From the NCBI GenBank assembly GCA_031409275.1, contig JANNXA010000024.1:32001-96000 (forward strand): a stretch of 64,000 nt of DNA. Direction: 5' to 3'. The notes under the pieces were generated by a model, which made no database searches, was not told the origin of the DNA, and saw nothing but the letters and a program-made list of their open reading frames with translations. Shown in pieces: positions 17,119 through 60,167 of this stretch. The stretch comes from Planctomycetota bacterium. GTDB lineage: Bacteria; Planctomycetota; B15-G4; SIAN01. Within the stretch, counting starts at the first letter, position 1. Each line of letters opens with the position of its first letter. The position numbers and the translations under genes are program-made.

Positions 17119-17440
17119 GAGCGCCTAACAGCCCGTTGGAGCACTCCCCGTGTCGCCTGGCGGCGTCTTTCAAGCCGGTACTTCGTCGGAGTCTCTCGAC
17201 AACTCACCGGGGAGTTGGCTTCGAACCTCCTCCTCGTCCCGACTCGAAATTCGCTCGGCAGACTCGCGGTGACTTCTCCAACGGGCTGCTAACAGAATGT
17301 CCGCTGCGTTCGACCGGCTGCGGCCACCCAGGACTTCGTCGACCTCCATCGGCGACTCTTCAGAGTCGCCTGCTTCGGCCTCCTCGTCCTGCGCGGCCTC
17401 GCTCGGTCTCGGCGCGACAAGTCCATTCTGTTAGGCGCTC
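17119..17440. mobile_element. MITE type A (158 bp once the nested insert is removed), 17-bp TIR GAGCGCCTAACAGAATG, TAA target duplication
   Basis: TAA|GAGCGCCTAA[insert]CAGAATG ... CATTCTGTTAGGCGCTC|TAA; central palindrome GGCGACTCT-TC-AGAGTCGCC. Confidence 0.85.
17129..17288. mobile_element. MITE type B copy 1 (160 bp), nested in the left TIR of type A, CTAA duplication
   Basis: CTAA|CAGCCCGTTGGAG ... CTCCAACGGGCTG|CTAA; a closely similar inverted copy lies at 60008-60167. Confidence 0.9.
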
Positions 17441-17494
17441 TAAGGAGCGTGGGGCCAGGCGCGTCAACGTGCCGCGGTCGTGATCAGGACTCGA

Positions 17495-17746
17495 TCACGA
17501 CTCGTCGTCGAGCGTGAAGCCGATCTTCACCGTGACCTGCCAGTGGGCGATCTTGCCGTCCTCGAGAGAGCCGCGCGTCTCGGTGATCTGGAACCAGCGC
17601 AGGTTCCGCAGCGTCTTCGCAGCACGCATCACGGCGTTGTTCACGGCATCGTCACTCGACTTGCTCGACGAGCCCACCAGCTCGGCGATCTTGTAGACGT
17701 TGGCAGCGCTCTTCTGCGGGTCGTTCTTCTGCTTGCCGTTCTTCAT
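17495..17746 (-). CDS. Dodecin family protein
   Basis: [39 protein letters not shown]....[12 protein letters not shown]. Confidence 0.93.
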
Positions 17747-17881
17747 GCGAATCTCCTGGAATAGGCGGTCCCGCACGCAGAAATGCGCGCGCGGACGTTC
17801 GCACCCTAGCGACCTAGGACGCAGTCCCGCGCTGCCATCGCAGCGTCGATTCACGCGCAGATCGCGTGGATCGGCGCTCCC

Positions 17882-19822
17882 TCACTCTTCGCGCGGCGGC
17901 ACGACGCGACGTCGCTCGCCCGCGACCAGCGTCAATTGCTGGGTCCTCTTGCGGCCATCGTTGTCGATCCACTCGAGCGTGACGGCGCCGGCCGGCACGA
18001 ACAACTCGACCTCCGACCGAATGACGTTTTTCTTCGGATCCGCGTAGGCGCTCCCGCACTTCGCGAGGCAGACGCCCTCCGCGAGGACCCGCACGCCAAC
18101 GGCGTGGCTGACACCCGGGTTCTCCTCGCCGTCGAGCACGGCATCCGCGACCGGAGAGGGATCCACTTCAAGGATCGCCGCCTTGCCGACGCGTGCCGCA
18201 ATCGTCGAGGTGCCGCGCGCCTGTACGACGAAGCCGCGCACCAGCGCGACCTCGCTCTCGCCGGCGAAGACGAGGACGTCGTAGGTGCCGGGTTCGAAAC
18301 CCACTCGCTGAAGCTCGAGTCCGTTCTCGCGCTGCTCGAACCGCTCCGCGCGATCGAGCTGTGGCACCTGCGAGCCGTCCGGGCGAAAGAAGCGGACCTC
18401 GCGAACGGCCCGCTCCGCGCCGGCCTCGTCATGCGCTTGCACCACCACCCGCTGCTGCAGCTCGACACGGACCACCACCTCGCCGGAGCTGACTCGTGCC
18501 TTCACCGGTTCCCGTGTCGCCAGCGATTCGTCGAGCGACGTGCCGGCCAGTGTCAGCACCGTGCGATTCGTCGCACCCCGAAAGCGGAAGCGCCCCTCCT
18601 TGTCGGTGGCGACGCTGGCCATCCACTCGACCGTTCCATCCTTCTCGATGAAACGCGTTCCGACCGTCCCAACGACCGGAGCGTCGTCAGGCCCGACCAG
18701 CCGGCCAACGATCTCGAGGCCGCGCTCGACCACCAATTCGAGCCACGCGGAGCGCGCCCCTTCGCGCACTTCGACCCATCCGCTGGCCGGACCATGGCAG
18801 GCGCCCGCCGCAGCGCCGCGCTCCTCGGCATCGGCCGCGAAGATCGCGAATCCGCTGGCGACGTCGGGCCAGACGAAGCGGCCGTCGCCGTCGGTGACGA
18901 TCCTGGCCCCCGACCAGCGCATCGCCCCGTAGATCGGCTCGGCTTCGCGCGCGGCGCGATCGGCAGCGGCGGCCCCGAGTTCGAGCGGCACGCAGCGGTG
19001 CCAATCCACCGCCGTGTCGGGAACCGGCACCCCGTTCGAATCGACCACCCTTCCGCTCACGAGCGGGCCGCCGCGCAGCTTCCAGCGCTTCACGATCCCC
19101 TCGCCAGCCGTGAAACGCATCGTCACGACGTCGCAATCGAGCAGCGCAAGCCCTTCGGTCAGTTCGACCTCGAGTTCGCGGTCGGTCGGCACGTCGGCGA
19201 TCAACGCCTCGCCTCGCGCGTCGGTGGTCGCTTCCACCACGAAGCGCACCGCGCCGATCCGTTCGAGCAGCCGCACCGTGACGCCCGACGCGGGGCGGCC
19301 ATCCGCCTCCAGGACGGTGGCGCGCAGCCGCGCCGGTCGCGTGAGCTGGATCACGAGCGGTTCGACGTCGGTGCGGCCGAGTTCCTGGCTGGCGACGGCG
19401 CGCGGCGCGTAGCCCTCCGCCGCGATCACGAGCCAATCGTCCTCCGCCGCCGCGAGCGCGAAACGCCCGTCGTCGTCGCTGCGCCCTTCGACCCGCATCC
19501 GCTGCAGCGACCAGACGTCGCGGCGCAGCATCCCGCCGTTGGCGGACGCCGGCCAGCCGATCGGCGCCTCGGCCAGCGCGATGCCGGTCGCCGCATCCAT
19601 GACGCGACCGTATCGCTGCGTCGTCACGCGCGTCGCGGTGCGCGCGGCCTCGCTGCTCGCCGGCGTCGCGACTTCGTCCGGCGCCGCGTCGTACACCGGT
19701 GCCTGGCGAACGACCGGTTCGAGCGACGGCCTCTCACGCTGCCACCAGGCGACGAACGCAGCGATCCCGGCGGCAGTCACCACCACCGTCACGGCGATCG
19801 GCAGCAGTCGCACCGCTCGCAT
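17882..19822 (-). CDS. Membrane-anchored carboxypeptidase-regulatory-like repeat protein
   Basis: N-terminal TM helix; repeated GRV.D..G.P and TD..GRF motifs. Confidence 0.8.
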   Translation of the reverse strand: MRAVRLLPIAVTVVVTAAGIAAFVAWWQRERPSLEPVVRQAPVYDAAPDEVATPASSEAARTATRVTTQRYGRVMDAATGIALAEAPIGWPASANGGMLRRDVWSLQRMRVEGRSDDDGRFALAAAEDDWLVIAAEGYAPRAVASQELGRTDVEPLVIQLTRPARLRATVLEADGRPASGVTVRLLERIGAVRFVVEATTDARGEALIADVPTDRELEVELTEGLALLDCDVVTMRFTAGEGIVKRWKLRGGPLVSGRVVDSNGVPVPDTAVDWHRCVPLELGAAAADRAAREAEPIYGAMRWSGARIVTDGDGRFVWPDVASGFAIFAADAEERGAAAGACHGPASGWVEVREGARSAWLELVVERGLEIVGRLVGPDDAPVVGTVGTRFIEKDGTVEWMASVATDKEGRFRFRGATNRTVLTLAGTSLDESLATREPVKARVSSGEVVVRVELQQRVVVQAHDEAGAERAVREVRFFRPDGSQVPQLDRAERFEQRENGLELQRVGFEPGTYDVLVFAGESEVALVRGFVVQARGTSTIAARVGKAAILEVDPSPVADAVLDGEENPGVSHAVGVRVLAEGVCLAKCGSAYADPKKNVIRSEVELFVPAGAVTLEWIDNDGRKRTQQLTLVAGERRRVVPPREE

Positions 19823-19860
19823 CCTCGCTCCCGTTGCGCCTCGCCCCCGTCGCGCCTCGC

Positions 19861-20643
19861 TCAGCTCCCGCCATCGCGCAGCGCGCGCGCCGCGGCCGCG
19901 ACCGTCGCATTGGCGTAGCGCAGGACGAAGTGGCCGTCGCGCCGGTGCTCGGGATCGAGATCGCAGAGCACGACGTCGTAGCCGCAGTACTGCGCCAGCG
20001 CGCGGATCGCCTCAGGCGAGCTCCAATCGAAGCAACCCGTGGTCGGATCGCTGTTGGCCGCCAGCACGCGCGGCACGTCGCCGACCAGCTTGCGCAGACC
20101 GTTGGCGGACGTGCCGTCGGCGAAAGTGCCGATGAACCAGCCCCCCAATTGCAGCACTTCGGTCGCGCCAAGGAGCAGCGCCGCCAGCTGATGGGCGGTG
20201 AGGTGGACCAGCGTGTCGATCGAGAAGAGCGCGTCGACACGACCGCTCCAGCCTTGCTGCGTCGCTGCGCGACTCACCGCGTTGGCATCGCGCTCATCGA
20301 TCAGCGCGAGCACCACCCGCCCTTGCGTCACTTCCTTCGCGAAGCGCTGCCGGCAGAGCTTCTGGAACTGCTCCGAGACGTCGAGCGCCAGCAGCTCGAC
20401 GGCGGGCGCGGCGGCCAGCACGCGCGCGGTGTACTTGCCCGCCCCCGGCCCGACTTCGATGGCGTGCTTCCACGTCGCGACGCCGCACGGCTCGAAGAGG
20501 CGGCGAAACCACGCCGACCAGAGGCGCTCGTCGCCCCACTCGTCGCCCGGCCAACCACCCGGCGGCGGCTGCGAGCGCGCCGCGTAGTCATCCCACGCTG
20601 CGGCGAACTTGCCATCCGTGGCTGCCATCGCGTCCCTCGTCAC
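19861..20643 (-). CDS. Class I SAM-dependent methyltransferase
   Basis: IEVGPGAGKYT, ALDVS, DALFSIDTLVHL. Confidence 0.85.
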   Translation of the reverse strand: MTRDAMAATDGKFAAAWDDYAARSQPPPGGWPGDEWGDERLWSAWFRRLFEPCGVATWKHAIEVGPGAGKYTARVLAAAPAVELLALDVSEQFQKLCRQRFAKEVTQGRVVLALIDERDANAVSRAATQQGWSGRVDALFSIDTLVHLTAHQLAALLLGATEVLQLGGWFIGTFADGTSANGLRKLVGDVPRVLAANSDPTTGCFDWSSPEAIRALAQYCGYDVVLCDLDPEHRRDGHFVLRYANATVAAAARALRDGGS

Positions 20644-22664
20644 GGCTCATCGATCACCACTTCCTCGCGGCCACCCGCCACGAGTTCCAGATCGCGCACC
20701 ACCGTACCCGCGCCGAGGCCTACGCGCAGGCGCACCGGTCCCGCCGGTGCGGTGAAGCGCTGCGTCGAGCCGAGCGCGAGCTCGCCAGCGGCGATGACCA
20801 CCGCACCGCTCTGCAATGCGACTTGCGCGAGCGTCACCGGGCCGGCGCGGTAGCGCACCTCGACGGTGGCGCCGCGCTGCAACACCACGTCGACCGCACG
20901 CGTCTCTCCTTCGGCCAGCGTGACCCCCTCGAGGAAGCCGGCGAAGCCGTCGGTGGTCGTCGCTCCGAGCGTGAAGTTCCCGGCAGGCAGCCCGTCGAAG
21001 CGGTCATCGCTGCTCGGCGTCGCACCGCGACCGCCCGTCCACGCGATCGCGTCGCCGCCTTGCTGAACCAGCAGGAAGCTCGCGGCAACCGGTTCGCCGC
21101 GCCCGTCGAAGCGCGCCACCATCACCAGCGCCGCGGCATCGGCGACCTCGATGCGCAGATCGCGGCTGCCCGCGCGCGCGTTCAGCGGCGGCGCGGCGGC
21201 GTAGCGCAAATCGGACGGCAGGAAGCGCAGCTCGTAGTCGCCTTCGGAGAGCGGCCCGGCGCGGAAGTTCCCTTCGACGTCGGCGTAGCTCGGGACCTCG
21301 CCGGCGATCGCGTTCCCGAGCTCGCGGACGCGCAACGTTCCCGGCACCGGCCCACCGCGCCGATCGAGAGCGCGCCCCGTGACGAAGAGGCCGCGCTGCG
21401 CCTGCAGTTCCACCTCGCTCGAAACGCTGCCGGCCGGCAACGACAGCGGCTGCGCGAGCGGGACGAGATCGCCGCCGGCATGGCCGAGCCCGATCCGTGA
21501 CCACGCCGCCGGCCCGATCCAGTAGTCGCCCGCCGCCACCGCGCCCCAATCGAAGCGCCCCTCCTCGTCGGTGAAAGCGCGCGCGACGACGTGCGACTCG
21601 TCGCCGGGAGTGAAGAAGGCGCTCTCCGCGTTGCGGTCGAGCTGCGCGCCCTGCGTCGCCAACCAGATCAGCACGTCGGCGAGCGGCGCGCCGGTCTCAT
21701 CGAGGAGACGTCCGCGCAGCTTGATGCCGCCGCCCAGTTGCCACGTGCGCTCGACCGTCGCGCCCGGTTCCATGCGAAGCGCGGTCGCCTCCACGATCGC
21801 CAGCTGGCCCGGCATCGACTCGGGCGGCACCACCGTGAACGAAAGGGCGGAGGAGGCGGGCAGCCCGGCGATCGTCGCGCGGCCGTCGCGATCGGTGGTG
21901 GCGGCCAACACGATCGGGGGCCCGCGCAACACCCCTTCTCCTGACCGATCGGTGCCGCGAAGGACGACGTCGAACGCGTCGAGCGCGTGCAGCGAGGCCA
22001 CGACGTCGGCCCCCTCGATCGGCAGCTCACCCGCGCCCAGCACGCGCGCCTGAAGGCGGCACTCGACGTCGAGTTCGACTGGCGCCGGCAACGCCGCATC
22101 GATCGACAGCTCTTCCGTCGTGACCCAACGCAGTCCGAAGCCGGACGCGCGCACGAAGAGGAGCCCTGGATCGGACGCCTGCGCCGGCAGCGTGAAACGG
22201 CCATCAGCGTCGCTGATCGCCAGCGGTCGCGCCGCCGGAACGAAAAGCAATACAAACGGAATGCGCCACGGGTCGCCGCGCGGTTCCTCGCCAACGAGCT
22301 CCGCCCCCTCGATCGGCGTGCCGTTCGTGGCGGTGACGCGACCGTGCAGCGGCGGCGACGGCGGGTTCGCTCTCGGTGGCCAGGCGCTCGCGTCGTGTGG
22401 CTCGTCCGGACCTCGTGCTGGCTTGAGGTCGGAAGCCGTTGCTTGCGACGCTTCCGATCGCGGCGGCGGCACCGCGGAGCGCACCGGCGATGGCAGTGGC
22501 GCCGTCGCATCGCTCGCCTCGCGCTCCACTCGACCGTTCTGCACCAGCCGTGGGCCCGCCAAGCCAAGCCACCACCACGCCGCACCCGCGAGCGCCGCGA
22601 AGGCGACGAGGAGCGCCACCGCCGCCGCCAACGCGCGGCCGCTCGTCAAGCCTCGTCGCTGCAT
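20640..22664 (-). CDS. Membrane-anchored carboxypeptidase-regulatory-like repeat protein
   Basis: N-terminal TM helix; repeated GRV..G.PI.GA and TD..GRF motifs; stop overlaps the methyltransferase start. Start may be 22691. Confidence 0.8.
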   Translation of the reverse strand: MQRRGLTSGRALAAAVALLVAFAALAGAAWWWLGLAGPRLVQNGRVEREASDATAPLPSPVRSAVPPPRSEASQATASDLKPARGPDEPHDASAWPPRANPPSPPLHGRVTATNGTPIEGAELVGEEPRGDPWRIPFVLLFVPAARPLAISDADGRFTLPAQASDPGLLFVRASGFGLRWVTTEELSIDAALPAPVELDVECRLQARVLGAGELPIEGADVVASLHALDAFDVVLRGTDRSGEGVLRGPPIVLAATTDRDGRATIAGLPASSALSFTVVPPESMPGQLAIVEATALRMEPGATVERTWQLGGGIKLRGRLLDETGAPLADVLIWLATQGAQLDRNAESAFFTPGDESHVVARAFTDEEGRFDWGAVAAGDYWIGPAAWSRIGLGHAGGDLVPLAQPLSLPAGSVSSEVELQAQRGLFVTGRALDRRGGPVPGTLRVRELGNAIAGEVPSYADVEGNFRAGPLSEGDYELRFLPSDLRYAAAPPLNARAGSRDLRIEVADAAALVMVARFDGRGEPVAASFLLVQQGGDAIAWTGGRGATPSSDDRFDGLPAGNFTLGATTTDGFAGFLEGVTLAEGETRAVDVVLQRGATVEVRYRAGPVTLAQVALQSGAVVIAAGELALGSTQRFTAPAGPVRLRVGLGAGTVVRDLELVAGGREEVVIDEP

Positions 22665-22735
22665 CGCTTGCCTCCCGTTCGGGCTCGCCAACGTCCCGGC
22701 CCGTCGCGCCGCTCGCGCCCTACAATCGCGCCCCC

Positions 22736-23626
22736 ATGAAGATCCGCAAAGCGGTGATCACGGCGGCCGGTCCCGATCAGCGCGAGCTGCCGCTGCAGCG
22801 ACTCGTCGATCGCGACGGTTCGGCGAAGTCGGCGCTGCGCCTGCTGCTCGACGAGGCGGCGGCCGCCGGCATCGGCGAGGTGGCGATCATCGTCCACCCC
22901 GACGATGGCGAGCGCTACGCCGCCGCGACGGGGGCGCCAGGCGGGGCGCCGCGCGTCGCCGATGGCGTCGAGCCCAAGCTCCACTTCGTGCCACAGGCGG
23001 CTGCGCGCGGCTATGCCGATGCGCTGTTGCAGGCGCGCGACTTCGTTGGCGACGAGCCCTTCCTCCACTTGGTGGGCGACCATCTCTTCCTGCCGCGCGG
23101 CGAGTTGCGCCCCGCCGCTGAACTCGTCGCGGTGGCGCAGCGTGAAGGGGCCGCCGTCTCGGCGGTGCAGTCGACGCGCGAATCGCATCTGCGCGAGTAC
23201 GGCGTGGTCGGCGGGCCGCGCGTCGCCGGCCGCGAGCGCCTCTTCGCCATCGACGCGGTGCTGGAGAAGCCGACTCCGACCGAAGCGGAGCAGACGCTCT
23301 TCGTGCCGGGACTGCGCGCCGGCCACTACCTCTGCTTCTTCGGGATGCACGTGCTGCCGGCCGCGATCTTCGACGCCCTCGCACAGGCGCTGCGCGACGC
23401 CGCCGAACCGCGCCGCGTCTCGTTGACGCACGCGCTCGCCACCCTGCCGGGCCGCGCGCGCTGGCTCGCGCTCGAAGTCGCCGCCACCCGCTTCAATCTC
23501 GGCGAGAAGTACGGGCTGCTGATCGCGCAGCTCGCGCTGGGACTTTCTGGGCGCGATCGCGACGACGTGCTGGCGCAGGTGACGGAACTCCTGCTCGCTC
23601 GCGAAAAGGGTCGCGCCCAAAAATGA
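22736..23626 (+). CDS. Sugar-phosphate nucleotidyltransferase-like protein (GalU-like, degenerate N-terminal motif)
   Basis: [43 protein letters not shown]. Confidence 0.85.
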
Positions 23627-26600
23627 GCCGACCGCTGAGCCGACTCGTCGCGATCCTCGAAACCGCGGACGACGCGCTGCGCCACCGTTCGCTGGAGGCC
23701 GCGGTCGCCGGGCTCGATGTCGAAGCGCTGCTGCACGAGTGCCGGGCGCTCGACGCGTTCCGCGCGCGCACCGACAACCTCTACCAGCGCGTGCGCGCCC
23801 TCTTCTTCCTGCAGGCGATCCACCGCTACCACCTCGCCGCGCGCGCGCAGCGGCTCCCCGCCGCCGGCGGCCGCATCCCGTACGACGGCCAGCAGCTGCT
23901 GCTCGACCGCCGTTTCGAGGAGGCGATCGCCTGCTTCCGGCGCACGCTTGACGACGCGGGCGTGAGCGAAGCGCTCTGCTCCGCGCTGGCCGCCGCCTAC
24001 CGCGGGCTCGCGTTCCAGACGCTCGCCGATCAGGTGCGCCGCAGCGTGCGCAGCGTGCGCGGCAACCAATGGATGTTCCGCTGCGGCCATCCGCTCGATC
24101 AGCCGCTGCGGCTGCGTCCCGAACTGCTGGAACGCGATGTTGCCGGCCACTACCCGCTGCTGGTCGAACGCACGCCGGTGCGCATGGACCTCACCCATTG
24201 CGGCTGGAGCGACATCTTCTTCCTCGGCATGGACCATCCCGAGGGCGCGCGCGTGCTGAACGTCTCGATCGACCTCGGCGTGCATGGCCGTGATGCGGCA
24301 CCGGCGCCGCCGGTCGAGTGTTCGCTGCGCGTGATCGACGAGCCGCTGCTGCGCCTCACCAGCGTCGACCTCGGCGCCACCGCCGACGTCGCGGAACTGC
24401 CGCTGCTGTTCGACTTCGCGCGCGACTACCTCGGCCTGCTGAAGGCGGCGCTGCTCGCCGCCGGGCTCGTGCCGCCAGGTATCGAAGGATCGGGCACGAC
24501 GCTGCAGCAGTTGCTGGCGCAGCTGGTCGGTGAAGGACGCGGACTGGAGATCGTGGCGCACGTGCGCGGCATCCCGAAGGGCTCGCGCCTCGCCGTGTCG
24601 ACCACGCTGCTCGGCTCGCTGATCGCCTTGTGCATGCGCGCGACCGGACAGACGCGCGCGCTGACGGGCACGCTCGAGGAAGCGGAGCGGCGCACCTGCG
24701 CGGCGCGCGCGATCCTCGGCGAGTGGCTCGGCGGCTCGGGCGGCGGCTGGCAGGACTCGGGCGGGCTGTGGCCGGGCATCAAGCTGATCGAAGGGGTCGC
24801 GACGGCAGCGGGCGACCCGGAACACGGGACGAGCCGTGGCCGCCTGCTGCCGCGCCACACGTTGCTCGGCCGCGAACGCGTTCCCGACTCGACGCGCGCG
24901 CAGCTGACGCGCTCGCTCGTGCTGGTGCACGGAGGCATGGCGCAGAACGTCGGCCCCATCCTCGAGATGGTGACCGAGAAGTACCTGCTGCGCAGCGACC
25001 TTGAATGGCGGGCGCGCCAGGAGACCGGCGCCATCCTCGAGCAGCTGCTCGTCGCGCTGGCGCACGGCGACATGAAGTCGCTGGCCGAAGCGACCACGCG
25101 CAACTTCTTCGGGCCGTTGACCACGATCATTCCGCAGGCGACCAACGCCTTCACCGAGTCGGTGATCGAGCGGGTCAAGCAGCGCTTCGGCGCGCGCTTC
25201 CTCGGCTTCTGGATGCTGGGCGGCATGTCGGGCGGCGGGATGGGTTTCCTCTTCGAACCGGAGCCGATCACCGACGCGGCCCCCGACGCGGCCCGCACCG
25301 CCGATCCGCTGGCGGCGACCAAGCGCGAGCTGCAGCAGATCCTCTCCTCGGCGAAGCGCGAGCTGCAGGACGCGCTCCCCTTCGCGATGGAGCCGGTCGT
25401 CTACGACTTCGCCATCAATGACCACGGCACGCGGGCACAGTGGAGCGCGCCGCGAGTCGCCGTCGCGCCGCACCCCGCCAACGCGACCACGGCCGCGGCG
25501 AGCGACGCGCCGCTACCCGAGCTGCTGGCGCGGCTCGGCTTCGATCGCGTCGAGCACGAGCAGATCCGCGTTGATCTGAGGGCCGGCCGCATCGGGCTCG
25601 CGCAGAATCGGCTGCCCGCGCACAGCGTGCTGCGCGACGCCGAGCCAGGCGACGTCGCCGACCTGCGCGCCGGTGCTGGTGCCGAGGAGGTCGCGCGCGG
25701 CACGGCGGCGCTGCAGCGCGGCGAAGTGGCGGTGCTCACGCTCGCGGCCGGCGCCGGCAGTCGCTGGAGCGGCGGCGCGAACGTCGTGAAGGCGCTCTTC
25801 CCGTTCGCCAAGTTCGATGGCCGATTCCGCAGCTTCCTCGACGTGCATCTCGCCAAGAGCCGGCGCGTGGCACGCGCGGCCGGCGTGCCGCTGCCCCACT
25901 TCGTCGCCACCAGCTCCTTCACGCATGAAGCGATCGCACGCCAACTCGCGCTGCGCACCGGATCGGAACCGCGCGAGCGCGACGTCGAAGTCGAGCTGTC
26001 GCCCGGCCGCGCCGTCGGCCTGCGGCTGATCCCGATGGAGCGCGACCTGCGCTTCGCGTGGGAGGAGACGCGCCACCAGCGGCTCGACGTGCAGGCGCAG
26101 AAGGTGCGCGAAAGCCTGCATGCGGCGCTGATCGGGTGGGCGCGCGGTGCGGGCGAAGGCGACGACTACACCGACAACCTCGCGGTGCAGTGCCTCCATC
26201 CCGTCGGCCACTTCTACGAGCTGCCCAACCTGCTGAAAAACGGTCGCCTCGCCCGATTGCTGCGCGAGCGGCCGCAACTCTCGACGCTGCTGCTGCACAA
26301 CATCGACACGCTCGGCGCCGACGTCGACGCGGGCCTGCTCGGCCACCATCTGCGCCAGGTCGAGGATGGCGGCGCGCTCACCTTCGAGGTGATCGGCCGG
26401 CAGCTCGAGGATCGCGGCGGTGGTCTCGCGCGGGTCGATGGTCGGCTGCGGCTGGTTGAAGGGTTGGCGCTGCCGCGCGAGGAGCAGGAGCTCGAACTGC
26501 GCTGGTACAACACGATGACGACGTGGATCGACATCGACTCGCTGCTGGCGCGCTTCGGCCTCACGCGCGAGCTGCTCCTGCGCAGCGCCGAGCCGGACAC

Positions 26601-26904: not shown

Positions 26905-26932
26905 CCGCGACGACGCGGCTCGCCCGGTCCGC

Positions 26933-51394: not shown

Positions 51395-51413
51395 AGGCAG
51401 CCGCTGGCGCGGA

Positions 51414-52199
51414 GTGTCGTGGAACGCCACCATCCGCGGCGTGCGACTCCACTGGACACGACCGCGCTCGCTGCTGGTCGGCGCGCTGATCACCGCGCTG
51501 CCGTTGGCGGTGCGCGCATGCGATCCGCCGCCGCGCCACCACGGCCACGACTACGGTGCCGCGCTCGACGCTGCGGCGCAGGACGGTCGGCTGTTGCTCG
51601 TCCATCTGCGTCATCCGCAGCGCGACGCGGGGGGCCGGCTCGACCTCTTCACGCTGCTCGACCATGACGTCGCGGCGCTGATCGAGAAGCGCTTCCATCA
51701 GGTGACCGTCGACGTCCTGCGTGAGTCGAAGCTGGCGGAGCGGCTCGCGGGCAGCGGAACCGCGGTCGCGACGCTCGTCCTCGCTGGCGACGGTCGGGTG
51801 CTCGCGCGCCAGGACGGCTACGTCGAGGCGACCCCCTTCCGCGCCTGGCTCGAGCGCGTGCTCCGCGAACGGCCGCGCCTCATGGCGCTGGAGCAGCAGC
51901 TCGTCGGCGCGCCGCTCGACGTCGACGCTCGGCTCGAGTTCGCCGAATTGCTCCACGCGCTTGGCGCGGACGCTCGCGCGGACTTGCAGCTCGCCGAGGC
52001 GCGGTCGGCCCTTGGCGCCGTCGCGCCGGAAGCGATGCGCGTCGCACGCGTCCGGGCCCGCGGCCTCGACGTCGAGCTGCTGCGTGGTCGCGGGCAGGAC
52101 GAAGCGGCGCAGCAGCTGCAGAAGCTTCCGATCGAGCGCTATCCTCCGCCCCCTTCTGCGGCGGAGGCGGACGTCGAGCGTCCGCGCGAGCCGCGCTGA
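51414..52199 (+). CDS. Thioredoxin-like fold protein lacking CxxC, with a TPR-like C-terminus
   Basis: DYGAALDAAAQDGRLLLV...F..VTVDV...TLVL..DG.VL.R.DGY; start uncertain. Confidence 0.6.
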   Translation: MSWNATIRGVRLHWTRPRSLLVGALITALPLAVRACDPPPRHHGHDYGAALDAAAQDGRLLLVHLRHPQRDAGGRLDLFTLLDHDVAALIEKRFHQVTVDVLRESKLAERLAGSGTAVATLVLAGDGRVLARQDGYVEATPFRAWLERVLRERPRLMALEQQLVGAPLDVDARLEFAELLHALGADARADLQLAEARSALGAVAPEAMRVARVRARGLDVELLRGRGQDEAAQQLQKLPIERYPPPPSAAEADVERPREPR

Positions 52200-52202
52200 G
52201 TA

Positions 52203-52363
52203 GTGTCCTGATCCCGAAGTGCGCATCACCATTCGGGGCGCCCTTCGCGCATGGCTTCGTCGGACCTCCTCATCGACTTCCCGCGAAGTCGATGTCGTCG
52301 GCCCTCCTTGCCGTGCACGAAGCTCGCCTCCGACTGCTCTCCCGAACTTCGGAATCAGGACAC
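52203..52363. mobile_element. MITE type C (161 bp), 18-bp TIR GTGTCCTGAT(C/T)CCGAAGT
   Basis: TA|GTGTCCTGATCCCGAAGT ... ACTTCGGAATCAGGACAC|CA; central palindrome CATCGACTTC-CCGC-GAAGTCGATG. Confidence 0.8.
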
Positions 52364-52377
52364 CAGGAGATCGCTCG

Positions 52378-53388: not shown

Positions 53389-53461
53389 TCGCGCACGGCG
53401 GGAACTCGGCGGTGGTGGGCAGCGTACGCTGCGCCTTCCCCTGCCGCCGAGGAGCCGCCGC

Positions 53462-56400
53462 ATGTCCACTCGCGTCCCCCATCGCCCGTTCCGCCCGTTC
53501 GTCGCGCTGACCGTCGTCGGCAGCACGCTCGCCTGCGCCGCCGCTGCGGCTCCGCTGGCGCCATCCCCGCTCGCCGCGCCGCGCCCGCCGCCTGCGGCGC
53601 AAGCGAGCGAAGGCCTGAGCACGACCGACACGCGCCTGCTCGAGCAGCCGGCGATGAGCGCCACCCACCTCGCATTCGTCTACGCGGGCGATCTGTGGGT
53701 GGCGAATCGAGATGGCAGCGGCGCGCGCCGCATGACGTCGCATCCCGGCCAGGAGTCGCGGCCGCGCTTCTCACCCGATGGCCAGTGGCTCGCCTTCTCC
53801 GGCGAGTACGACGGCAACGTCGACCTCTTCGTGATGCCGGTCACCGGCGGCGAGCCGCGTCGCCTCACCACCCATCCGGGCGCCGACGTCGTGCAAGGCT
53901 TCACCGCCGATGGTCGCGAGCTCCTCTTCACGTCGCAACGCGATGTCCATTCGGGACGCTTCCACCACCTCTTCAAGGTAAGCGTTGAGGGCGGTTGGCC
54001 GACGCGCCTGCCGCTACCGAGCTGCAGCAAGGCGACGCTCTCGCCGGACGGGAAGAAGGTCGCCTACCTGCCGCTCTCCGAGCCGTTCCAGCAGTGGAAG
54101 AACTACCGCGGCGGTCGCGCGAGCCGGATCTGGATCTGCGACCTCGCCGACCTCTCGGTCGAGCAGGTGCCGCAACCGGCGGGGCGCTGCAACGACACCG
54201 ACCCGATGTGGCTGGCCGGCCCGCATTCGAATCAGCTCTTCTTCCGCAGCGACCGCGCCGGCGAGTTCAACCTCTTCGCCTATGACTTCGCCAGCAAGGC
54301 CGTGCAGCAGAAGACGACGCACGCCGACTTGCCGGTGGTGAACGCTTCCGCGGCTCCGGACGCAATCGTCTACGAGCAGGCCGGTTGGCTGCACCGCTTC
54401 GATCCCAAGAGCGGCGTGGCGCAACGGCTCATCGTCGGCGTCGCCGCCGACCTCGTCGAGACGCGGCCGCGTTTCGTGAAGGGCGCGCAGTACCTGCGCA
54501 GCGCGAGCCTCTCGCCGAGCGGCACTCGCGTCGCCGTCGGCTTCCGCGGCGAGATCGTGACGCTGCCCGCCGAGAAGGGCGATCCGCGCAACCTGACGCA
54601 GTCGCCCGGTGTGAACGAGCGCGACCCGGCCTGGTCGCCCGACGGCAAGACGATCGCCTGGACGTCGGATGAAGGCGGCGCGCACCACCTCGTGCTGGCG
54701 CCGCAGGACGGACGCGGCGAACGGCGCACGCTGACGATTCCGGGCGCCGGCTTCTACGAGCCGGCCGGCTGGTCGCCCGACAGCCGCAAGCTGGCGGTCA
54801 TCGACAACGCGCGCGCGCTCTGGCTCGTCGATGTGGAGAGCGGCGAGTCGAAGCGGATCGATGCGGAACCGGTCTATGGCGTGCTTTCCAGCATCGCGAT
54901 CGCCTGGTCTCCCGACTCGAAGTGGCTCGCCTACACGCTGGCCGTCCGCACCGGCTTCCGTCGCCTCTACCTGCGCGACGTTGCCGCCGAACGCTCGACC
55001 GCCGTGACCGACGGCCTTGCCGACGTCGCCGAACCGGCGTTCGACGCCAGCGGCAAGTACCTCTGGTTCGCGGCGTCCACCGACGCCGGGCCGCTGCTCA
55101 ACTGGTTCTCGCTGACCAGCAGCGACCTCGCGCAGACCAACGCCCTCTACGTCGTCTGCCTGCAGAAGGGGACGCCGTCCCCGTTCGCGCCCGAAAGCGA
55201 TGAGGAAGCCGGTGTCGTCGCGGCCGCAGCGAAGCCGGCCGACGCGACGCCTGCCGACGCGACGAAAGCCGATCCCGCTGCCGCCGACGCGGTGGTGACG
55301 CCGTCGATCGACCTCGATGGCCTTGCGGAGCGCATGCTGGCGCTGCCGTTGCCAACGGCCGCGTACAGCAACCTCGTCGGTGGCAGCGATGGACAACTTT
55401 GGTACGTGAAGTCGGAGCGCGCGCCGTTCTCCGGGCCGGCGCAAAAGCCGACGTTGGCGCGGTTCGACCTCGCGACGCGCAAGGAGAAGGTGATCCAGGA
55501 AGGGGTCGACGGCTTCGAGCTGTCGGCCGACAAGAAGAAGCTCCTGATCGGCGGCGGCGACGGGCGCTTCGTGGTCGCGGCTGGCGACGCGCTCGACAAG
55601 AGCAAGGGGCGCCTCGCCGTCGATGCCATCGAGGTGCGCATCGAGCCGCGCACCGAGTGGGCGCAGATCCTCGACGAAGTGTGGCGCATCAACCGCGACT
55701 GGTTCTACGACCCAGGGATGCACGGCGCCGATTGGCCGGCGATGCGCGCGCGCTACTTCCAGTTCCTCCCCCACCTCGCGACGCGCGGCGACCTGAATCG
55801 CGTGATCCAGTGGCTCTGCTCGGAACTGGCCGTCGGCCACAGCTACTCGGGCGGCGGCGACACACTGATCAGCGGCAAGCCGATCGCTGGCGGACTGCTC
55901 GGCGCCGACTACGAAGTCGTCGATGGACGCTATCGCTTCGCCAAGGTCTTCGGGGGCCAGCCGTTCGCACCGGAACTGCGCGCTCCGCTCGCGGCACCCG
56001 GCGTCGCGGTGCAGGCGGGCGAGTTCCTGCTCGCGGTCGACGGCGTGCCGCTGCTGGCCAGCGAAGAACTCTTCGCGCGATTCGAAGGCAGAGCGGGCAA
56101 GCAGGTCGAGCTGACCGTCGGGCCGAACGCGGACGGCAGCGGCTCGCGCACGGTGAAGGTGGTGCCCGTCGAGAACGAGGCGGCATTGCGCAACCGCGAC
56201 TGGGTCGAAGGCAACTTGCGCCGTGTCACTGAGGCGACGGCTGGCCGAGTCGGCTACGTCTACGTGCCGAACACGTCGGATGCCGGCTTCACCTACTTCA
56301 AGCGCTGGTTCTTCCCGCAGACCGATCGCGAGGCGTTGATCGTCGACGAGCGGATGAACGGCGGCGGCTCGTTCGCCGACTACGTCATCGACCTGCTGCG

Positions 56401-56851
56401 CCGACCCTACACCGCTCATTGGGCAACGCGCTACGGCGAGAGCTTCATCACGCCGCAAGGCGCGCTGTTCGGACCGACCGCGATGTTGATCGACGAGACG
56501 GCCGGCTCGGGCGGCGATCTGCTGCCGTGGATGTTCCGCAAGTTCGGACTCGGCAAGTTGATCGGCCGGCCGACCTGGGGCGGACTGGTCGGCATCCTCG
56601 GCTTCCCGGAACTGATGGATGGCGGCAGCGTGACGGCGCCCAACCTCGCGATCTGGACCGAAGCGGATGGCTTCTGCGTCGAGAACGTCGGGGTCCCTCC
56701 CGACCTCGAGGTGGAGATGGCGCCAGCCGACTGCGTCGGTGGCCGCGATCCGCAGCTCGAGCGGGCCATCGCGGAACTGCTTGCGGAGCTCGACAAGAAC
56801 CCGCGGCGTCCGGCGGTCCAGCCGCCCTTCCCCGTGCGCGCGCGGCGCTGA
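53462..56851 (+). CDS. Tricorn-like S41 protease
   Basis: PD40 repeats (PRFSPDG, WSPDG), SELAVGHSY, PDZ domain, DERMNGGG, AGSGGD, TWGGLVG, ENVGVPPD, DPQLERAI. Confidence 0.95.
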   Translation: MSTRVPHRPFRPFVALTVVGSTLACAAAAAPLAPSPLAAPRPPPAAQASEGLSTTDTRLLEQPAMSATHLAFVYAGDLWVANRDGSGARRMTSHPGQESRPRFSPDGQWLAFSGEYDGNVDLFVMPVTGGEPRRLTTHPGADVVQGFTADGRELLFTSQRDVHSGRFHHLFKVSVEGGWPTRLPLPSCSKATLSPDGKKVAYLPLSEPFQQWKNYRGGRASRIWICDLADLSVEQVPQPAGRCNDTDPMWLAGPHSNQLFFRSDRAGEFNLFAYDFASKAVQQKTTHADLPVVNASAAPDAIVYEQAGWLHRFDPKSGVAQRLIVGVAADLVETRPRFVKGAQYLRSASLSPSGTRVAVGFRGEIVTLPAEKGDPRNLTQSPGVNERDPAWSPDGKTIAWTSDEGGAHHLVLAPQDGRGERRTLTIPGAGFYEPAGWSPDSRKLAVIDNARALWLVDVESGESKRIDAEPVYGVLSSIAIAWSPDSKWLAYTLAVRTGFRRLYLRDVAAERSTAVTDGLADVAEPAFDASGKYLWFAASTDAGPLLNWFSLTSSDLAQTNALYVVCLQKGTPSPFAPESDEEAGVVAAAAKPADATPADATKADPAAADAVVTPSIDLDGLAERMLALPLPTAAYSNLVGGSDGQLWYVKSERAPFSGPAQKPTLARFDLATRKEKVIQEGVDGFELSADKKKLLIGGGDGRFVVAAGDALDKSKGRLAVDAIEVRIEPRTEWAQILDEVWRINRDWFYDPGMHGADWPAMRARYFQFLPHLATRGDLNRVIQWLCSELAVGHSYSGGGDTLISGKPIAGGLLGADYEVVDGRYRFAKVFGGQPFAPELRAPLAAPGVAVQAGEFLLAVDGVPLLASEELFARFEGRAGKQVELTVGPNADGSGSRTVKVVPVENEAALRNRDWVEGNLRRVTEATAGRVGYVYVPNTSDAGFTYFKRWFFPQTDREALIVDERMNGGGSFADYVIDLLRRPYTAHWATRYGESFITPQGALFGPTAMLIDETAGSGGDLLPWMFRKFGLGKLIGRPTWGGLVGILGFPELMDGGSVTAPNLAIWTEADGFCVENVGVPPDLEVEMAPADCVGGRDPQLERAIAELLAELDKNPRRPAVQPPFPVRARR

Positions 56852-56996
56852 CCGAAGGCGCGCCGGCGCCGAGTACGAATTCCCGATTGCAGGAAGATCA
56901 CCCCTGCGCAGCGACCCTGCGCGGGGGCGATCGCGCGATTCCTCCCGGGGTCGCGGGGCGCGCGGCCAGCGGCAGCGCCGTTGCGTCCTCCCCGGC

Positions 56997-57857
56997 ATGG
57001 CGACGACTCCCTCGCAACGTCTCGGACTCCTGCGCGTCCTGCTGCCGCGTCCTCATCGCTACCGCGCGTGGCGCAGCAAGATCGCGCTGCTGTCGCTGAT
57101 CGTCGTCGCCGCGCCGCCGTTGTCGGGGCTTGGTCGCATCGACTTGTGGCGCGGCCACCATTTGCTGCTGGGCGAGCCGGTCGGCTTCGGCAAGGCGCTC
57201 TTCGGTGGACTCCTGTTCGGGACCGCGAGCTACCTCATCACCTTCGTGGTGAACGCCTTCGGGGGTCGGCTCTTCTGCGGCTTCGGCTGCCCGCTGTCGC
57301 AAGCCAATCGCCTGGTCGAGGAGGTCGACACCCAGCGCGGCAAGCCGGGCCGCGCGGCCGCGATCGCGCGCAGCTGGCTCTTCGCCGTCGCCTTCGCCGC
57401 CGCGATCCTCCACTGGTGGATCAATCCGCGGCTGTGGCTCGAGGGAAGCATCGGCGCGCGCGCCGCCGCACTCGGTGCGCTGGCGATCGGCGCCGCGCTG
57501 ATCCAGGGCCACGCGCGCTGGTGGCATTGGGCCTTCTGTCGCGGATGGTGCCCGGTCGGCCTCTACTACTCGGTGGTGTCGCCGAGCACCGCACTCGGCA
57601 TCCACTTCGACGCCGCCACCTGCGTCAACTGCAACGCGTGCGATCGCGTCTGCCCGGTCGGCCTCGCGCCGCGCAACCTGCCCGGCGAGATCGAGCGCGA
57701 CGAAGGGCTCGCCATCGCCAGCACGACCGGCGTCCACCACTGCTTGAGCTGCGGCGACTGCGTCGAAGCGTGCGAGTACATCTTGGAGAAGCGCGGCGTG
57801 ACGCCCATCGCGTTGACGCTGACCGCGCATCCGTTCCGCCCGAAGACGCCGGCGTGA
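56997..57857 (+). CDS. Membrane 4Fe-4S protein (NapH/CcoG-like)
   Basis: GRLFCGFGCP, FCRGWCP, CVNCNACDRVCP, CLSCGDCVEAC. Confidence 0.88.
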   Translation: MATTPSQRLGLLRVLLPRPHRYRAWRSKIALLSLIVVAAPPLSGLGRIDLWRGHHLLLGEPVGFGKALFGGLLFGTASYLITFVVNAFGGRLFCGFGCPLSQANRLVEEVDTQRGKPGRAAAIARSWLFAVAFAAAILHWWINPRLWLEGSIGARAAALGALAIGAALIQGHARWWHWAFCRGWCPVGLYYSVVSPSTALGIHFDAATCVNCNACDRVCPVGLAPRNLPGEIERDEGLAIASTTGVHHCLSCGDCVEACEYILEKRGVTPIALTLTAHPFRPKTPA

Positions 57858-59140
57858 CCGCGCAAAGCGACGGGCGCGGCGGAGTCTGGCTGACGGCCTA
57901 CGTCGCGCTGGCGCTGTTGCCGATGGCAGCGGCGGGGGTCGCGCGCGCCGACAGCGAGCCGCTGCGATTCGCGTCCGAGCTGGCCGTCACGACCGGCTTC
58001 GTCGCGTTCGCGTTGCTGATGCTCGAGCTGCCGCCGATCTCTCGACTGCGCCACCTCTCCGACCGCTTCGGCATCGACCGGCTGATGCGCTTCCATCGTG
58101 CGATGGGAGTGGTGGCGCTGGTGTTCGTCGCCGCGCACATCTGGCTCGCGGGCGGGCGATGGACGCGCAGCGGCGCGATCGCCTTCGGGAGCACGCTGCT
58201 GCTGGTGGCGACTTCGATCGGTCGGCGGACCTTGCACCTGCCCTACGAAGCGTGGCACCTGCTTCACGTGCTGCTTTCACTGACGCTGGTGCCGGCGCTG
58301 CTGGTCCACCTCTTCACGGCGCGCGGAACGCCTCCGCCACGAGCGCTCGCGCTCGTGATCGGCGCGTACGGAGTCGCCTTCGTGCTGCTGATGGTGCGCG
58401 ATCGCATCGCGCGACCGCTGTGGCTCGCGCGCCGACCGTGGGAGGTCGTCGCGAACCGCGCGGAAGGGGGCGACACGCAGACGCTGGTGGTGCGGCCGCT
58501 CGGCCATCGCGGCTTCGACTTCGGGCCGGGACAGTTCGCATGGGTGCTGACCGGCCGCCATCCGCTCCTCGCCGAGCAGCACCCGATCACCTTCTCCTCC
58601 TCCGCCGAACGTCCGCCGGACGGCTCGATCGAACTTGCGATCAAGGCGCTCGGCGACTGGAGCGGCACCATCGTCCCGGCGCTCCGCCCCGGCGCGCGCC
58701 TCTGGCTCGATGGACCTTACGGCTCGCTCACGACCGATCGCATCGCGGCCCAAGGCTTCGTGCTGATCGCCGGTGGAATCGGCATCACGCCAATGCTCTC
58801 GATCCTGCGAACGATGCGTGATCGCGGCGATCGCCGGCGGGTGGTGCTGTTCCATGCCGCGCGCAACCGTCAGCGGATGGTCTTCGCAGCGGAGCTCGCC
58901 GCGCTGCGCCGCACGCTCGACCTGCGCATCGTCGAGCTCTTCGAAGAGGCGCAGGCCGGCGCCGAGGAGGGGTTCATTCGCGCCGAGCTGCTGCGACGCC
59001 ACTTGCCGCCGGACGTGCGCCACGATGCGTTCCTCGCGTGCGGCCCGGCGCCGATGCTCGACGCCGTCGGGCGAGCGCTGGCCGATGTCGGCGTCTCACC
59101 CCATCAGCTCCACACCGAACGGTTCGACCTGATGTCATGA
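57854..59140 (+). CDS. Ferric-reductase-like TM domain plus FAD/NAD(P)-binding reductase
   Basis: FHR..G..AH, YEAWHLLH..H, FGPGQF, HPITFSS, DGPYG, IAGGIGITP, CGP. Confidence 0.9.
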   Translation: MTAQSDGRGGVWLTAYVALALLPMAAAGVARADSEPLRFASELAVTTGFVAFALLMLELPPISRLRHLSDRFGIDRLMRFHRAMGVVALVFVAAHIWLAGGRWTRSGAIAFGSTLLLVATSIGRRTLHLPYEAWHLLHVLLSLTLVPALLVHLFTARGTPPPRALALVIGAYGVAFVLLMVRDRIARPLWLARRPWEVVANRAEGGDTQTLVVRPLGHRGFDFGPGQFAWVLTGRHPLLAEQHPITFSSSAERPPDGSIELAIKALGDWSGTIVPALRPGARLWLDGPYGSLTTDRIAAQGFVLIAGGIGITPMLSILRTMRDRGDRRRVVLFHAARNRQRMVFAAELAALRRTLDLRIVELFEEAQAGAEEGFIRAELLRRHLPPDVRHDAFLACGPAPMLDAVGRALADVGVSPHQLHTERFDLMS

Positions 59141-59451
59141 ACTTCCTGCGCGACCCCATCGACCGACTCGCGATCGCGCTCGGGCTGCTGCTCGCGGCCG
59201 CGGCGAGCGCAGCGGCATGGCGTGCCAGCGTCCCCCACCCGGCCGCGCTCGCGCCGCCGACGGCGGCACAGCTCTGGCAACGCCACTGCGCACACTGTCA
59301 CGAGCGAGCCGAGTTGCTGTCGACGCTGCGTTCCAGTGTCGCCTTCGACCAGGCCGAGAAGCTCACGGAGTTCCTCGCAACGCACGGTCGCGCCAACGCC
59401 ATCGAAGATCGCATCATCGCCGAGGAGCTATCCCTCGAGATTCACCGCTGA
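59137..59451 (+). CDS. Small c-type cytochrome
   Basis: Signal or TM segment, CAHCH; ATGA-coupled. Confidence 0.75.
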   Translation: MNFLRDPIDRLAIALGLLLAAAASAAAWRASVPHPAALAPPTAAQLWQRHCAHCHERAELLSTLRSSVAFDQAEKLTEFLATHGRANAIEDRIIAEELSLEIHR

Positions 59452-59500
59452 CCGTGTCCGCTCCTACGATCCAGAACCTCCTTGGAGCCTCGAACCCCAC

Positions 59501-60007
59501 ATGGGCACCCAGTACCGACCCCCGAAGTCCCCCGAACAGCGCGACCGCAATCGTGCCGTTGCGGTACGTGTCGACGACCTGATGGTGGACCACGTGATGA
59601 CCGCGACCCCGCATCAGTCGGTCGAGCACGTCCGTGCGCTGATGGCGCAGCACCGCATCCATGCGCTGCCGGTCATCGACGCCGAGGGCCATCCGATCGG
59701 GATCGTCACCTCGAGCGACCTGATCGAGGAGCTGCCCGCCGCGAAGCCGATCGGCCAGCTCATGACGCGCGCGGTCTACAGCGTGCCGCGCTACGAGGAC
59801 CCCTCGATCGCGGCGCGCATCATGCGCAACCATCGCATCCACCACGTGGTCGTGACGCACGAGGGACGCATCGCCGGGATCTTGAGCTCGCTCGATCTGC
59901 TGGCGCTCGTCGAAGAACGCCGCTACGTCTCGAAGCAACGTCCCGACACCACCCAGCGCGGCGTCGGTGACCGCAAGAAAGGCGAAGGCAAGGGCAAGAA
60001 GCCGTAG
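59501..60007 (+). CDS. CBS domain pair protein
   Basis: V.DLM..V, IHALPVID..G.PIGIVTSSDL, IHHVVV..G.I.GILS.LDL; start uncertain. Confidence 0.88.
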   Translation: MGTQYRPPKSPEQRDRNRAVAVRVDDLMVDHVMTATPHQSVEHVRALMAQHRIHALPVIDAEGHPIGIVTSSDLIEELPAAKPIGQLMTRAVYSVPRYEDPSIAARIMRNHRIHHVVVTHEGRIAGILSSLDLLALVEERRYVSKQRPDTTQRGVGDRKKGEGKGKKP

Positions 60008-60167
60008 CAGCCCGTTGGAGAAGTCACCGCGAGTCCGGCGAGCGGATTTCGAGTCGGGACGAGGAGGAGGTTCGAAGCCAATTCCCCGGTGAGTTGTCGA
60101 GAACGTCCGACGAAGTACCGGCTTGAAAGACGCCGCCGGGCGACACGGGGAGTTGTCCAACGGGCTG
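60008..60167. mobile_element. MITE type B copy 2 (160 bp), GTAG duplication
   Basis: GTAG|CAGCCCGTTGGA ... TCCAACGGGCTG|GTAG; inverted relative to 17129-17288. Confidence 0.9.

Follow-up and report, generated by a model that had tools for sequence, protein, structure and literature searches.

Introduction

ERIC repeats, also called IRU or RU-1, have been known since about 1990, and to our knowledge the conservation of their interior has so far received no explanation. Bacterial MITEs are generally regarded as leftovers of insertion sequences (IS) and are defined by their ends; they are usually taken to be IS deletion derivatives with family-specific interiors. As far as the accessible descriptions go, Correia/NEMIS, RUP, YPAL, Nezha and Chunjie are intergenic elements of 100-200 bp with IS-like TIRs, target duplications and long stem-loops, all features shared by the elements reported here. 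What sets the latter apart is an interior that the matching IS lack and that stays conserved from one IS family to another. We analysed these elements in a window of 64,000 nucleotides (the whole stretch of Planctomycetota DNA under study) and followed their core through other genomes.

Results

Elements of the window

Table 1. Elements and cores in the window (positions count from its first letter)
Feature	Positions	Strand	Description
MITE family A	17119..17440	(-)	17-bp TIR, TAA/TAA duplication, IS5-type ends
MITE family B, copy 1 (B1)	17129..17288	(-)	160 bp, nested in the TIR of A, CTAA/CTAA
MITE family B, copy 2 (B2)	60008..60167	(+)	160 bp, GTAG/GTAG, IS1182-like ends
MITE family C, subfamily C1	52203..52363	(-)	161 bp, TA/CA flanks; weakly IS630-like ends
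Core of A	17324..17396	(-)	GAGGA 17385-17381, GACGAA 17340-17335
Core of B1	17171..17246	(-)	GAGGA 17235-17231, GACGAA 17187-17182
Core of B2	60050..60125	(+)	GAGGA 60061-60065, GACGAA 60109-60114
Core of C	52245..52320	(-)	AAGGA 52309-52305, GACGAA 52261-52256

The coordinates, lengths, flanks and loop and stem strings quoted in an earlier note on this DNA are all present in the sequence. Element A measures 158 bp once the B insert and one of the CTAA copies are taken out; B1 entered it at a CTAA inside the TIR and has the same orientation. The stop codon of the CBS-domain gene upstream of B2 falls within the GTAG/GTAG duplication, and both genes next to the family C copy are antisense to it. 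The earlier statement that the window holds no transposase stands for the genes flanking the elements, to which the scan extended and among which none was recognised, and a position just downstream of a gene, true within the window, is not the rule genome-wide. The ends were correctly described as unrelated, their first 15 nt being identical at 9/15 (A-B), 5/15 (A-C) and 4/15 (B-C) positions, and global identity among A, B and C is 54-56%.

Folded as DNA and compared with shuffles, the strand carrying the purine loop gave z-scores of -6.8, -3.8 and -3.4, versus -4.7, -0.4 and -1.2 for the opposite strand. Under a covariance model that had A, B2 and C among its training sequences, all four copies in the window scored 59-67 bits, and the next-best match there reached 18.8 bits. 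In the core of C, a flipped second module (GACGAC/GAGGA) lies beneath the apical hairpin; such a flipped module, often accompanied by a third nearer the TIR, was absent from the earlier description.

Families, ends and matching insertion sequences

A, B and C are multicopy families spread across the genome, and the same core occurs in the further families D, E/F, H, K and L. TIRs are 14-22 bp long in A, B, C and D, and family K has the core and no clear TIR. There are 127 near-full copies; among the 110 that have called neighbours, a single one is intragenic. Exact target duplications flank 9 of 16 A copies (3 bp, TNA-like) and 13 of 22 B copies (4 bp, NTAG/CTAA-like), and TA/TA flanks occur in 3/6 C2 and 0/4 C1 copies. 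The elements combine the defining traits of MITEs: TIRs, target duplications, a short, multicopy and intergenic sequence devoid of transposase, and, for A, B and D, ends matching autonomous IS.

For family A, these are the IS5 elements L185, L186 and L189, with TAA/TTA duplications, the transposase of L186 scoring over the NF033580 cut-off. B ends match the IS1182-like L178, which has a TTAG duplication and a transposase encoded by a split gene (best match NF033551, below cut-off), and D ends match the IS1380 element L001 (NF033539), located in the host genome itself. The deduction of IS5-like ends from TAA, and of IS1182- or IS5-like ends from the 4-bp duplications, agrees with these matches, as does the idea of several IS families. 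The assignment of C to IS630, deduced from TA, is weakly supported by the TA flanks and by one truncated locus (L196) where C ends accompany a 31-aa C-terminus, presumably IS630-like, that has no NCBIfam match; PF13358 was not found in the host genome, and C ends searched across the class returned MITE copies or chance matches only. In the 93%-complete host genome, searches by paired TIRs and by PF13358, PF05598 and PF13586 brought up no intact transposase of the A, B or C type; a broken IS1182-like remnant (L002) is present. The core is absent from all five end-matching IS, where the only match of covariance model R1 is a separate B copy in L001.

Structure and covariation of the core

Stem covariation exceeded that of shuffles. 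Seventeen representatives yielded 63 compensatory cells against 24.4 after shuffling, and 31 matches from 27 genomes outside the training set yielded 118 against 39.1 (0/500 shuffles in both cases); because family representatives are related, these counts overstate independence. The anchored count covers the families other than G, whose 3' loop strand is indistinct. The loop pairs covary non-canonically: in the 31 out-of-training matches, one position is A·G in 17, C·A in 14 and nothing else (p=4e-9), and the second is G·A in 12, A·C in 14 and other in 5 (26/31 G·A↔A·C), the two changes being independent of each other. Another 28 matches gave 12 A·G, 16 C·A and no other pair at the first position. 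Across phyla, AGG/ACG is invariant, the 5x6 loop geometry is fixed and the spacing is 39-47 nt (62 in D and ERIC). The strands are asymmetric, with 65 G·T versus 24 A·C and 215 A·G versus 18 C·T in 23 representatives.

From this pattern the loop is predicted to have a single G-C pair between two tandem sheared blocks, and a bulge, in the putative geometry 5'-C GA G GA G-3' against 5'-C GA C GA A G-3' with the last A bulged. The accessible texts of two studies describe tSH G·A, A·C and U·A as isosteric on RNA data (PMC8450098) and sheared CGAG blocks as forming in DNA (PMC10085684). Sheared G·A, the G·T bias and isostericity are equally compatible with RNA. A kink-turn of Kt-7 type, tempting if only the window is considered and formally matched by GGA/GACGAA (a 3-nt bulge, then G·A, A·G and A·G), was rejected on the loop covariation: the would-be bulge base L1 covaries with 1n, C stands in place of the invariant A of a k-turn at 1n in 14/31 and at the 2b position in 16/31 matches, and L3 belongs to an invariant C-G pair, against the unpaired bulge of a k-turn. 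The A1nC change abolishes k-turn function, according to the accessible part of PMC5061560, and a search for an L7Ae-family gene found none.

Neither the window nor 14 loci gave a match at or above an Rfam gathering threshold, and the best match in 17000-17600 had E=7. The shared core is described neither in Rfam nor in the literature searched; subscription papers, ISfinder and preprint supplements, outside that search, may cover parts of it. A scan of genome contigs with the exact pattern found at least 120 loci; among the matches listed, 21 passed a loose filter and eight were true elements by eye, seven Planctomycetota-titled and one Clostridiales-titled. Model R2 gave 0/81 in the phylum of genome G043, at a threshold that also misses G043's own copies. 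A loose motif descriptor drowned in background and was discarded for counts: it returned 490 matches in the host genome, 263 once that genome was reversed and 57-349 when the loops were scrambled.

Orientation, neighbourhood and decay

In 69/101 copies the strand that folds is the C-rich one (p=3e-4), leading and lagging being inferred from the GC skew of draft assemblies. The relative G021 points the same way in 15/20 confident calls (p=0.04; 21 vs 11 over all 32 copies, p=0.11). The split is 32 vs 22 in non-tandem contexts (p=0.22) and 9 vs 5 for E. coli ERIC (p=0.42); a core-less repeat family also appears skewed (8 vs 2), and part of the bias tracks transcription (antisense in 24/27 between leading-strand genes). 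The preference of the folded strand for the inferred leading-strand template hints at single-stranded DNA. The bias is moderate and could be a by-product of hairpin loss on the lagging template rather than serve a purpose.

Sites between divergent genes hold 27/110 copies, in line with background (p=0.82), and convergent intergenic sites are enriched (32/109 copies against 337/2498 regions, p=3e-5). At tandem sites the folded strand is sense in only 17 of 50 cases, and at stop-adjacent sites in 17 of 42. Many copies touch stop codons because their targets contain TAA, TGA or TAG. Private substitutions, counted in families other than K, are as frequent in the core (32/1049) as in the body (244/7869; OR 0.98). 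Inserted copies decay neutrally, with no purifying selection on the core, though a functional minority would escape notice.

Exchange of ends

The one chimera found, between A and B and situated elsewhere in the host genome (G000:C47:3890-4076), has its junction in the core. It agrees with A at 56/62 positions up to GGACGAGGAGG, continues as B, and ends with the last 10 nt of A bearing one change, within a TTC/TTC duplication. The nesting of B1 in A would represent the precursor state of such a chimera, and ends are probably swapped in this way, by insertion of one element into another and subsequent deletion between their cores. Several families have homologous arms, and common descent explains part of the core sharing. 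The earlier view of a conserved module under structural selection, captured by several IS ends, holds for the strand-specific module and for the variety of ends; its independent capture gives way, at least in part, to descent with end-swapping.

Discussion

We tentatively propose, with a probability of about 0.48 for the whole, that these elements are non-autonomous MITEs with ends matching different DDE insertion-sequence families, whose core acts as folded single-stranded DNA that aids mobilisation and passes between end types. The shared centre, whose purine loop covaries, would form a strand-specific hairpin, probably as DNA rather than RNA, and would be recognised by a putative partner, either a host factor or a transposase. 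Fold-back might, for example, pair both TIRs at the replication fork or while the element moves from one cell to another. Selection would act on transposing lineages and not on inserted copies, and the core would reach new ends through nested insertion and deletion between cores.

A core that benefits the element as RNA, its rod and sheared loops binding a protein, escaping or directing RNase cleavage, or templating cDNA like UG27, seems unlikely. The covariation obeys RNA isostericity, the strand bias is of G·U type, the host genome has four RT genes and, in the accessible texts, RNase E/III act on ERIC and Correia transcripts (reviews) and UG27 hairpins of about 149 and 167 nt template cDNA (bioRxiv 10.64898/2026.09.22.753630). 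However, the four RT genes have no core-bearing copy within 5 kb, UG27 motifs differ and UG27 units are arrayed beside their RT, TIRs and duplications are typical of DDE transposition, the apical loops lack the RNA tetraloop signature (UNCG 0/66, GNRA 1/66), and the folded strand, judged by gene orientation, is not preferentially transcribed. Less likely still is an inherited imperfect palindrome with no partner, whose purine mismatches permit a one-strand fold and avoid a two-strand cruciform and perfect-palindrome toxicity. The intrinsic stability of G·A tandems, the poor folding of the opposite strand, the homologous arms and the neutral decay would all suit it, but stability alone leaves unexplained the invariant AGG/ACG, the fixed loop geometry, the pair-specific non-canonical covariation and the near-constant spacing across phyla. 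Maintenance for an effect on neighbouring mRNAs, as the mobile 3'-UTR of the earlier note or another regulatory RNA module, is improbable: despite the convergent sites, the frequent contact with stop codons and such effects of ERIC in Yersinia (in the accessible part of a review), copies occur between divergent genes at background rate, their folded strand is mostly antisense, stop adjacency follows from the target sequence, and the core of inserted copies escapes purifying selection.

The structure is kept across IS5, IS1182-like, IS1380 and probably IS630 ends and in several phyla, which points to a so far unknown step or factor in the spread of miniature elements. The nested copy and the C47 chimera offer a concrete route for the birth of new MITE families, and the covariation defines exact disrupt-and-rescue mutants, making the question directly testable, E. 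coli included. It is rather doubtful, though conceivable, that a pan-bacterial mobility cassette independent of the transposase family exists, in which a sheared-purine motif of folded single-stranded DNA (or RNA), read by a conserved host factor, would make a successful MITE of any pair of IS ends and form the hidden functional heart of ERIC.

Recombination of integron attC sites is the work of the tyrosine integrase IntI, which acts through their boxes and extrahelical bases. Our elements have DDE-type TIRs and duplications instead, so the likeness is an analogy only. In the accessible text of PMC5371416, attC forms a strand-specific imperfect hairpin, as here, and in mobile integrons the strand that folds is rich in purines. 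Sedentary integrons have it mostly on the leading-strand template, similar to our folded strand, with attC bottom strands in the same direction in 25/30 of them. UG27 ncRNA units resemble our elements as sequence-diverse hairpins of ~150-167 nt whose asymmetric internal loop holds conserved motifs, and differ in the motifs themselves (AUCN7UANAG/UUYA) and in forming arrays, within prophages, next to a three-gene RT system; the accessible description mentions neither TIRs nor target duplications (bioRxiv 10.64898/2026.09.22.753630).

ERIC is among the closest systems. The accessible parts of reviews on ERIC and its kin describe no core common to different end types, unlike the at least four end types found here. 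Full-length similarity to the ~127-bp ERIC/IRU consensus was not found, ends and centre length being different: ERIC ends in TA and has a centre of 62 nt versus ~44 nt here, and the duplications of A, B and D span 3-4 bp, C alone being TA-like. Model R2 recovered 1/8 E. coli ERIC loci at E<=0.01 (E=0.003, 22.9 bits), R1 reached 12.2 bits at best, and the ERIC pattern gave 0 in 401 genomes of the class of G044. The resemblance of the loops stated in the earlier note was confirmed, since ERIC of E. coli K-12 carries AAGGC/AACGCA in the same 5x6 geometry and intermediates towards it are present in the host phylum. Like our elements, ERIC is a non-coding, TIR-bounded rod that also repeats a 2x3 RA/GMA unit and GA/GA tandems. 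All four covarying variants of the loop described here occur, and the ERIC loop corresponds to the one with both A·C and C·A; kinship between the whole elements is partial.

Core-bearing elements in the window and the genome

The four window elements described in the earlier note were borne out in lengths, flanks and quoted strings. Elements A and B1 (the first B copy) neighbour convergent genes, sugar ABC binding protein-like and dodecin; B2 neighbours convergent CBS-domain and esterase-like genes, and C two co-directional genes to which its core is antisense. Their purine-loop strand folds far above dinucleotide shuffles, and also above the opposite strand.

The host genome comprises 5.59 Mb in 55 contigs (69% GC, 93% complete). 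A motif-blind search yielded 1304 TIR-bounded candidates, 88 of them multicopy, in 51 clusters. The core, a strand-specific hairpin with an asymmetric purine loop, is present in the four largest non-coding clusters (families B, A, D and C) and in the small families E/F and H, while G has only part of it and the REP-like family I lacks it; families K and L were added through pattern searches. Fifteen seeds gave 155 matches, 127 of which span at least 60% of a seed. Exact target duplications flank 9/16 copies of A and 13/22 of B, and C is flanked by TA/TA in 3/10. GCGAAGC, present in a longer B subfamily (Table), is a sequence known as an unusually stable DNA mini-hairpin. Tandem units resembling family K were seen in another phylum (L324, L328, L332, L333).

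Table. Locations of elements and related features (C-numbers, contigs of the host genome G000; L-numbers, individual loci).
Feature	Location	Description
B1	window 17129-17288	same orientation as A; nested at CTAA within A's terminal repeat
Possibly REP-like repeat (family D19)	window 12997-13143	~36-nt repeat x3, internal inverted repeat; just downstream of ORF ending 13146
A/B chimera	G000:C47:3890-4076	TTC/TTC flanks
IS1380-family element	L001:958-2645 (G000:C34)	intact, 476 aa, NF033539; B copy at CTAG adjoining right end
Broken IS1182-like transposase remnant	L002:1615-2625 (own genome)	resembles B-ended IS of L178
B subfamily	G000:C16:200790-200964 and about 6 more copies	175 bp; 15-nt insertion with GCGAAGC
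Family G	G000:C55:8819-9006 (L281)	188 bp; 7 near-full copies, distant from genes; 5' loop strand present, centre branched, strand asymmetry slight
Family I	e.g. G000:C44:92498-92638; C16:5561-5678	~31 matches of REP-like end sequence; inverted pairs, variable interiors
Family K	G000:C50:228142-228368; C20:20610-21414; C10:77635-77857 (L275)	~110-bp core-bearing units; head-to-tail tandems without clear TIRs

Covariation and predicted structure of the loop

Among 22 family representatives, 186/220 stem cells were paired; sliding the strands lowered this to 66-83, and swapping the 3' halves to 126 +/- 6. The count of 186 is lenient because the anchors were partly selected by pairing. A MAFFT alignment of 17 cores had 84.9% of cells paired and 63 compensatory, against 61.2% and 24.4 in shuffles (0/500). 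The covariance model built on it (R1) matches in 35/121 genomes of the host phylum, including G000. In a second set, 27 of 30 fetched loci, from genomes outside the training, gave 31 matches, with 86.9% of cells paired and 118 compensatory cells versus 39.1 in an alignment fitted to the model. Modelling of this kind had been proposed in the earlier note, and the stems covary in both sets. Core-bearing elements are real, under selection and widespread.

R1 contains no base pairs within the loop. Across the 31 matches, the base that closes the 5' loop strand and the one that opens the 3' strand read either A·G (17 matches) or C·A (14), with no other combination (p=4e-9). The opening base of the 5' strand, taken with position 5 of the 3' strand, reads G·A in 12 matches and A·C in 14, the remaining 5 showing something else. 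These two covariations are mutually independent, which argues against a two-lineage artefact. The A·G/C·A covariation is kept in 28/28 further matches found with a second model (R2), which matches in 5/101 and 10/61 genomes of the phyla of two other genomes, G044 and G045, respectively. The available part of PMC8450098 lists tSH G·A, A·C, U·A and A·A as isosteric, and the TA/AAC variant of many family K units is consistent with that list. The loop is predicted to form two tandem sheared blocks, one on either side of a G-C pair that never varies, plus a single bulged base. Many elements repeat a 2x3 unit, C-RA-G/C-GMA-G, two to four times, and loops lie 39-47 nt apart, or 62 nt apart in the case of D and ERIC. 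In 23 representatives, all of which fold better on the loop strand, arm-versus-arm mismatches are G·T in 65 versus A·C in 24 and A·G in 215 versus C·T in 18. A k-turn register was excluded by the loop covariation and by a search that found no L7Ae-family gene.

Element ends and their likely exchange

On viral contigs, A-type ends bound elements of 850-900 bp that encode an IS5 transposase and are flanked by TAA/TTA duplications (3 complete among 11 loci), and NF033580 matched both A-ended IS5 elements scanned. B-type ends bound a single element of 1513 bp, seen in 2/8 viral-contig loci, which has a TTAG duplication and a split transposase of IS1182-like type, and D ends resemble those of the intact IS1380 element of the same genome. 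In 1/3 loci the C-type end lies behind a 31-aa C-terminus that looks IS630-like; this fragment had no model match. The core is absent from all five complete IS with matching ends, so the MITE interior is not an IS remnant. On viral contigs, B-type ends also surround other interiors (L175, L177), one with an AAGGC-type strand; neither scored at the element with the core models.

In the chimera on contig C47, the left arm of A as far as GGACGAGGAGG (56/62 identity to the A copy in the window) is followed by the body and right end of B, and these by the final 10 nt of A, which carry a single change. It is what would be left by a deletion between two cores in a window-like nest: nested insertion followed by such a deletion would create a new combination of ends and core. 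B's end would supply the CTG of A's TIR, so that the chimera keeps near-complete A ends. More than one family is held by 7/136 clusters, and in relatives A-like arms occur within at least four other end types. On the basis of one chimera, ends may be exchanged by nest deletion, or by other possible routes.

Selection, folded DNA or RNA, and genomic placement

Across five families, K left out, with 70 copies aligned, private substitutions occurred at equal rates in core (32/1049) and body (244/7869). Private changes creating G·T or A·C were balanced (63 vs 53), while the shared ones tended towards G·T (29 vs 17, p=0.10). Inserted copies show neutral decay, and the core is therefore most likely conserved by selection on lineages that spread.

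The best-supported mechanism, to which we give a probability just under one half (about 0.48), is a self-serving folded module that would act as DNA. From 127 copies, 103 were retained after dropping tandem duplicates and contig-end copies; the folded (purine-loop) strand was the C-rich strand in 69 of the 101 with usable skew (p=3e-4), in 13 versus 7 of those between genes on the C-rich strand, and in 32 versus 22 at non-tandem sites (p=0.22). In G021, a relative, the counts were 15 versus 5 among confident calls and 21 versus 11 overall; for E. coli ERIC they were 9 versus 5, computed with assumed ori/ter positions. With the G-rich strand taken as leading, as is generally established, the strong hairpin lies preferentially away from the lagging-strand template. 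Apical loops held the RNA tetraloops UNCG in 0/66 and GNRA in 1/66. A core-less repeat family likewise looked skewed (8 vs 2). Orientation and apical loops are no more than hints at DNA, and the bias may be a by-product.

The same self-serving module acting as RNA is given about half the probability of DNA. Sheared pairs form in RNA. They form in DNA too, according to the part of PMC10085684 available. Four reverse-transcriptase genes (L335-L338) were seen in the host genome. A mobile 3'-UTR role, raised in the earlier note, fits poorly as a general function: among 110 copies with neighbours called by a custom script, 50 lay between tandem genes, 32 between convergent and 27 between divergent ones, and 1 inside a gene, and the folded strand was sense in 17/50 tandem and 17/42 stop-adjacent sites.

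Comparison with known systems

The elements had no match in Rfam. A core common to several end types is not described in the available parts of three MITE reviews (PMC10969869, PMC3184786, PMC2229807) and of a 183,232-genome MITE survey (PMC11602168). Full-text searches aimed at the core found no describing paper, and a look-up on the reading by sheared pairs and replication orientation found no match. The UG27 ncRNA is, from the available part of bioRxiv 10.64898/2026.09.22.753630, an architectural analogue whose motifs differ. Bottom strands of attC sites, like the core hairpin, avoid the lagging-strand template, with the same direction in 25/30 sedentary integrons (PMC5371416, available part).

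The closest likeness, raised in the earlier note, is to ERIC, the enterobacterial ~127-bp repeat. E. coli K-12 copies carry AAGGC/AACGCA with the geometry of the core loop, plus further RA/GMA and GA/GA units; the ERIC loop is a double variant of the core loop, and all four combinations are present in the host phylum. The likeness holds for the loop, but whole-element similarity is weak (1/8 ERIC loci at E=0.003), and the elements thus share ERIC's loop without being ERIC. We regard them as MITEs with an ERIC-type loop, containing a structural motif that is apparently undescribed.
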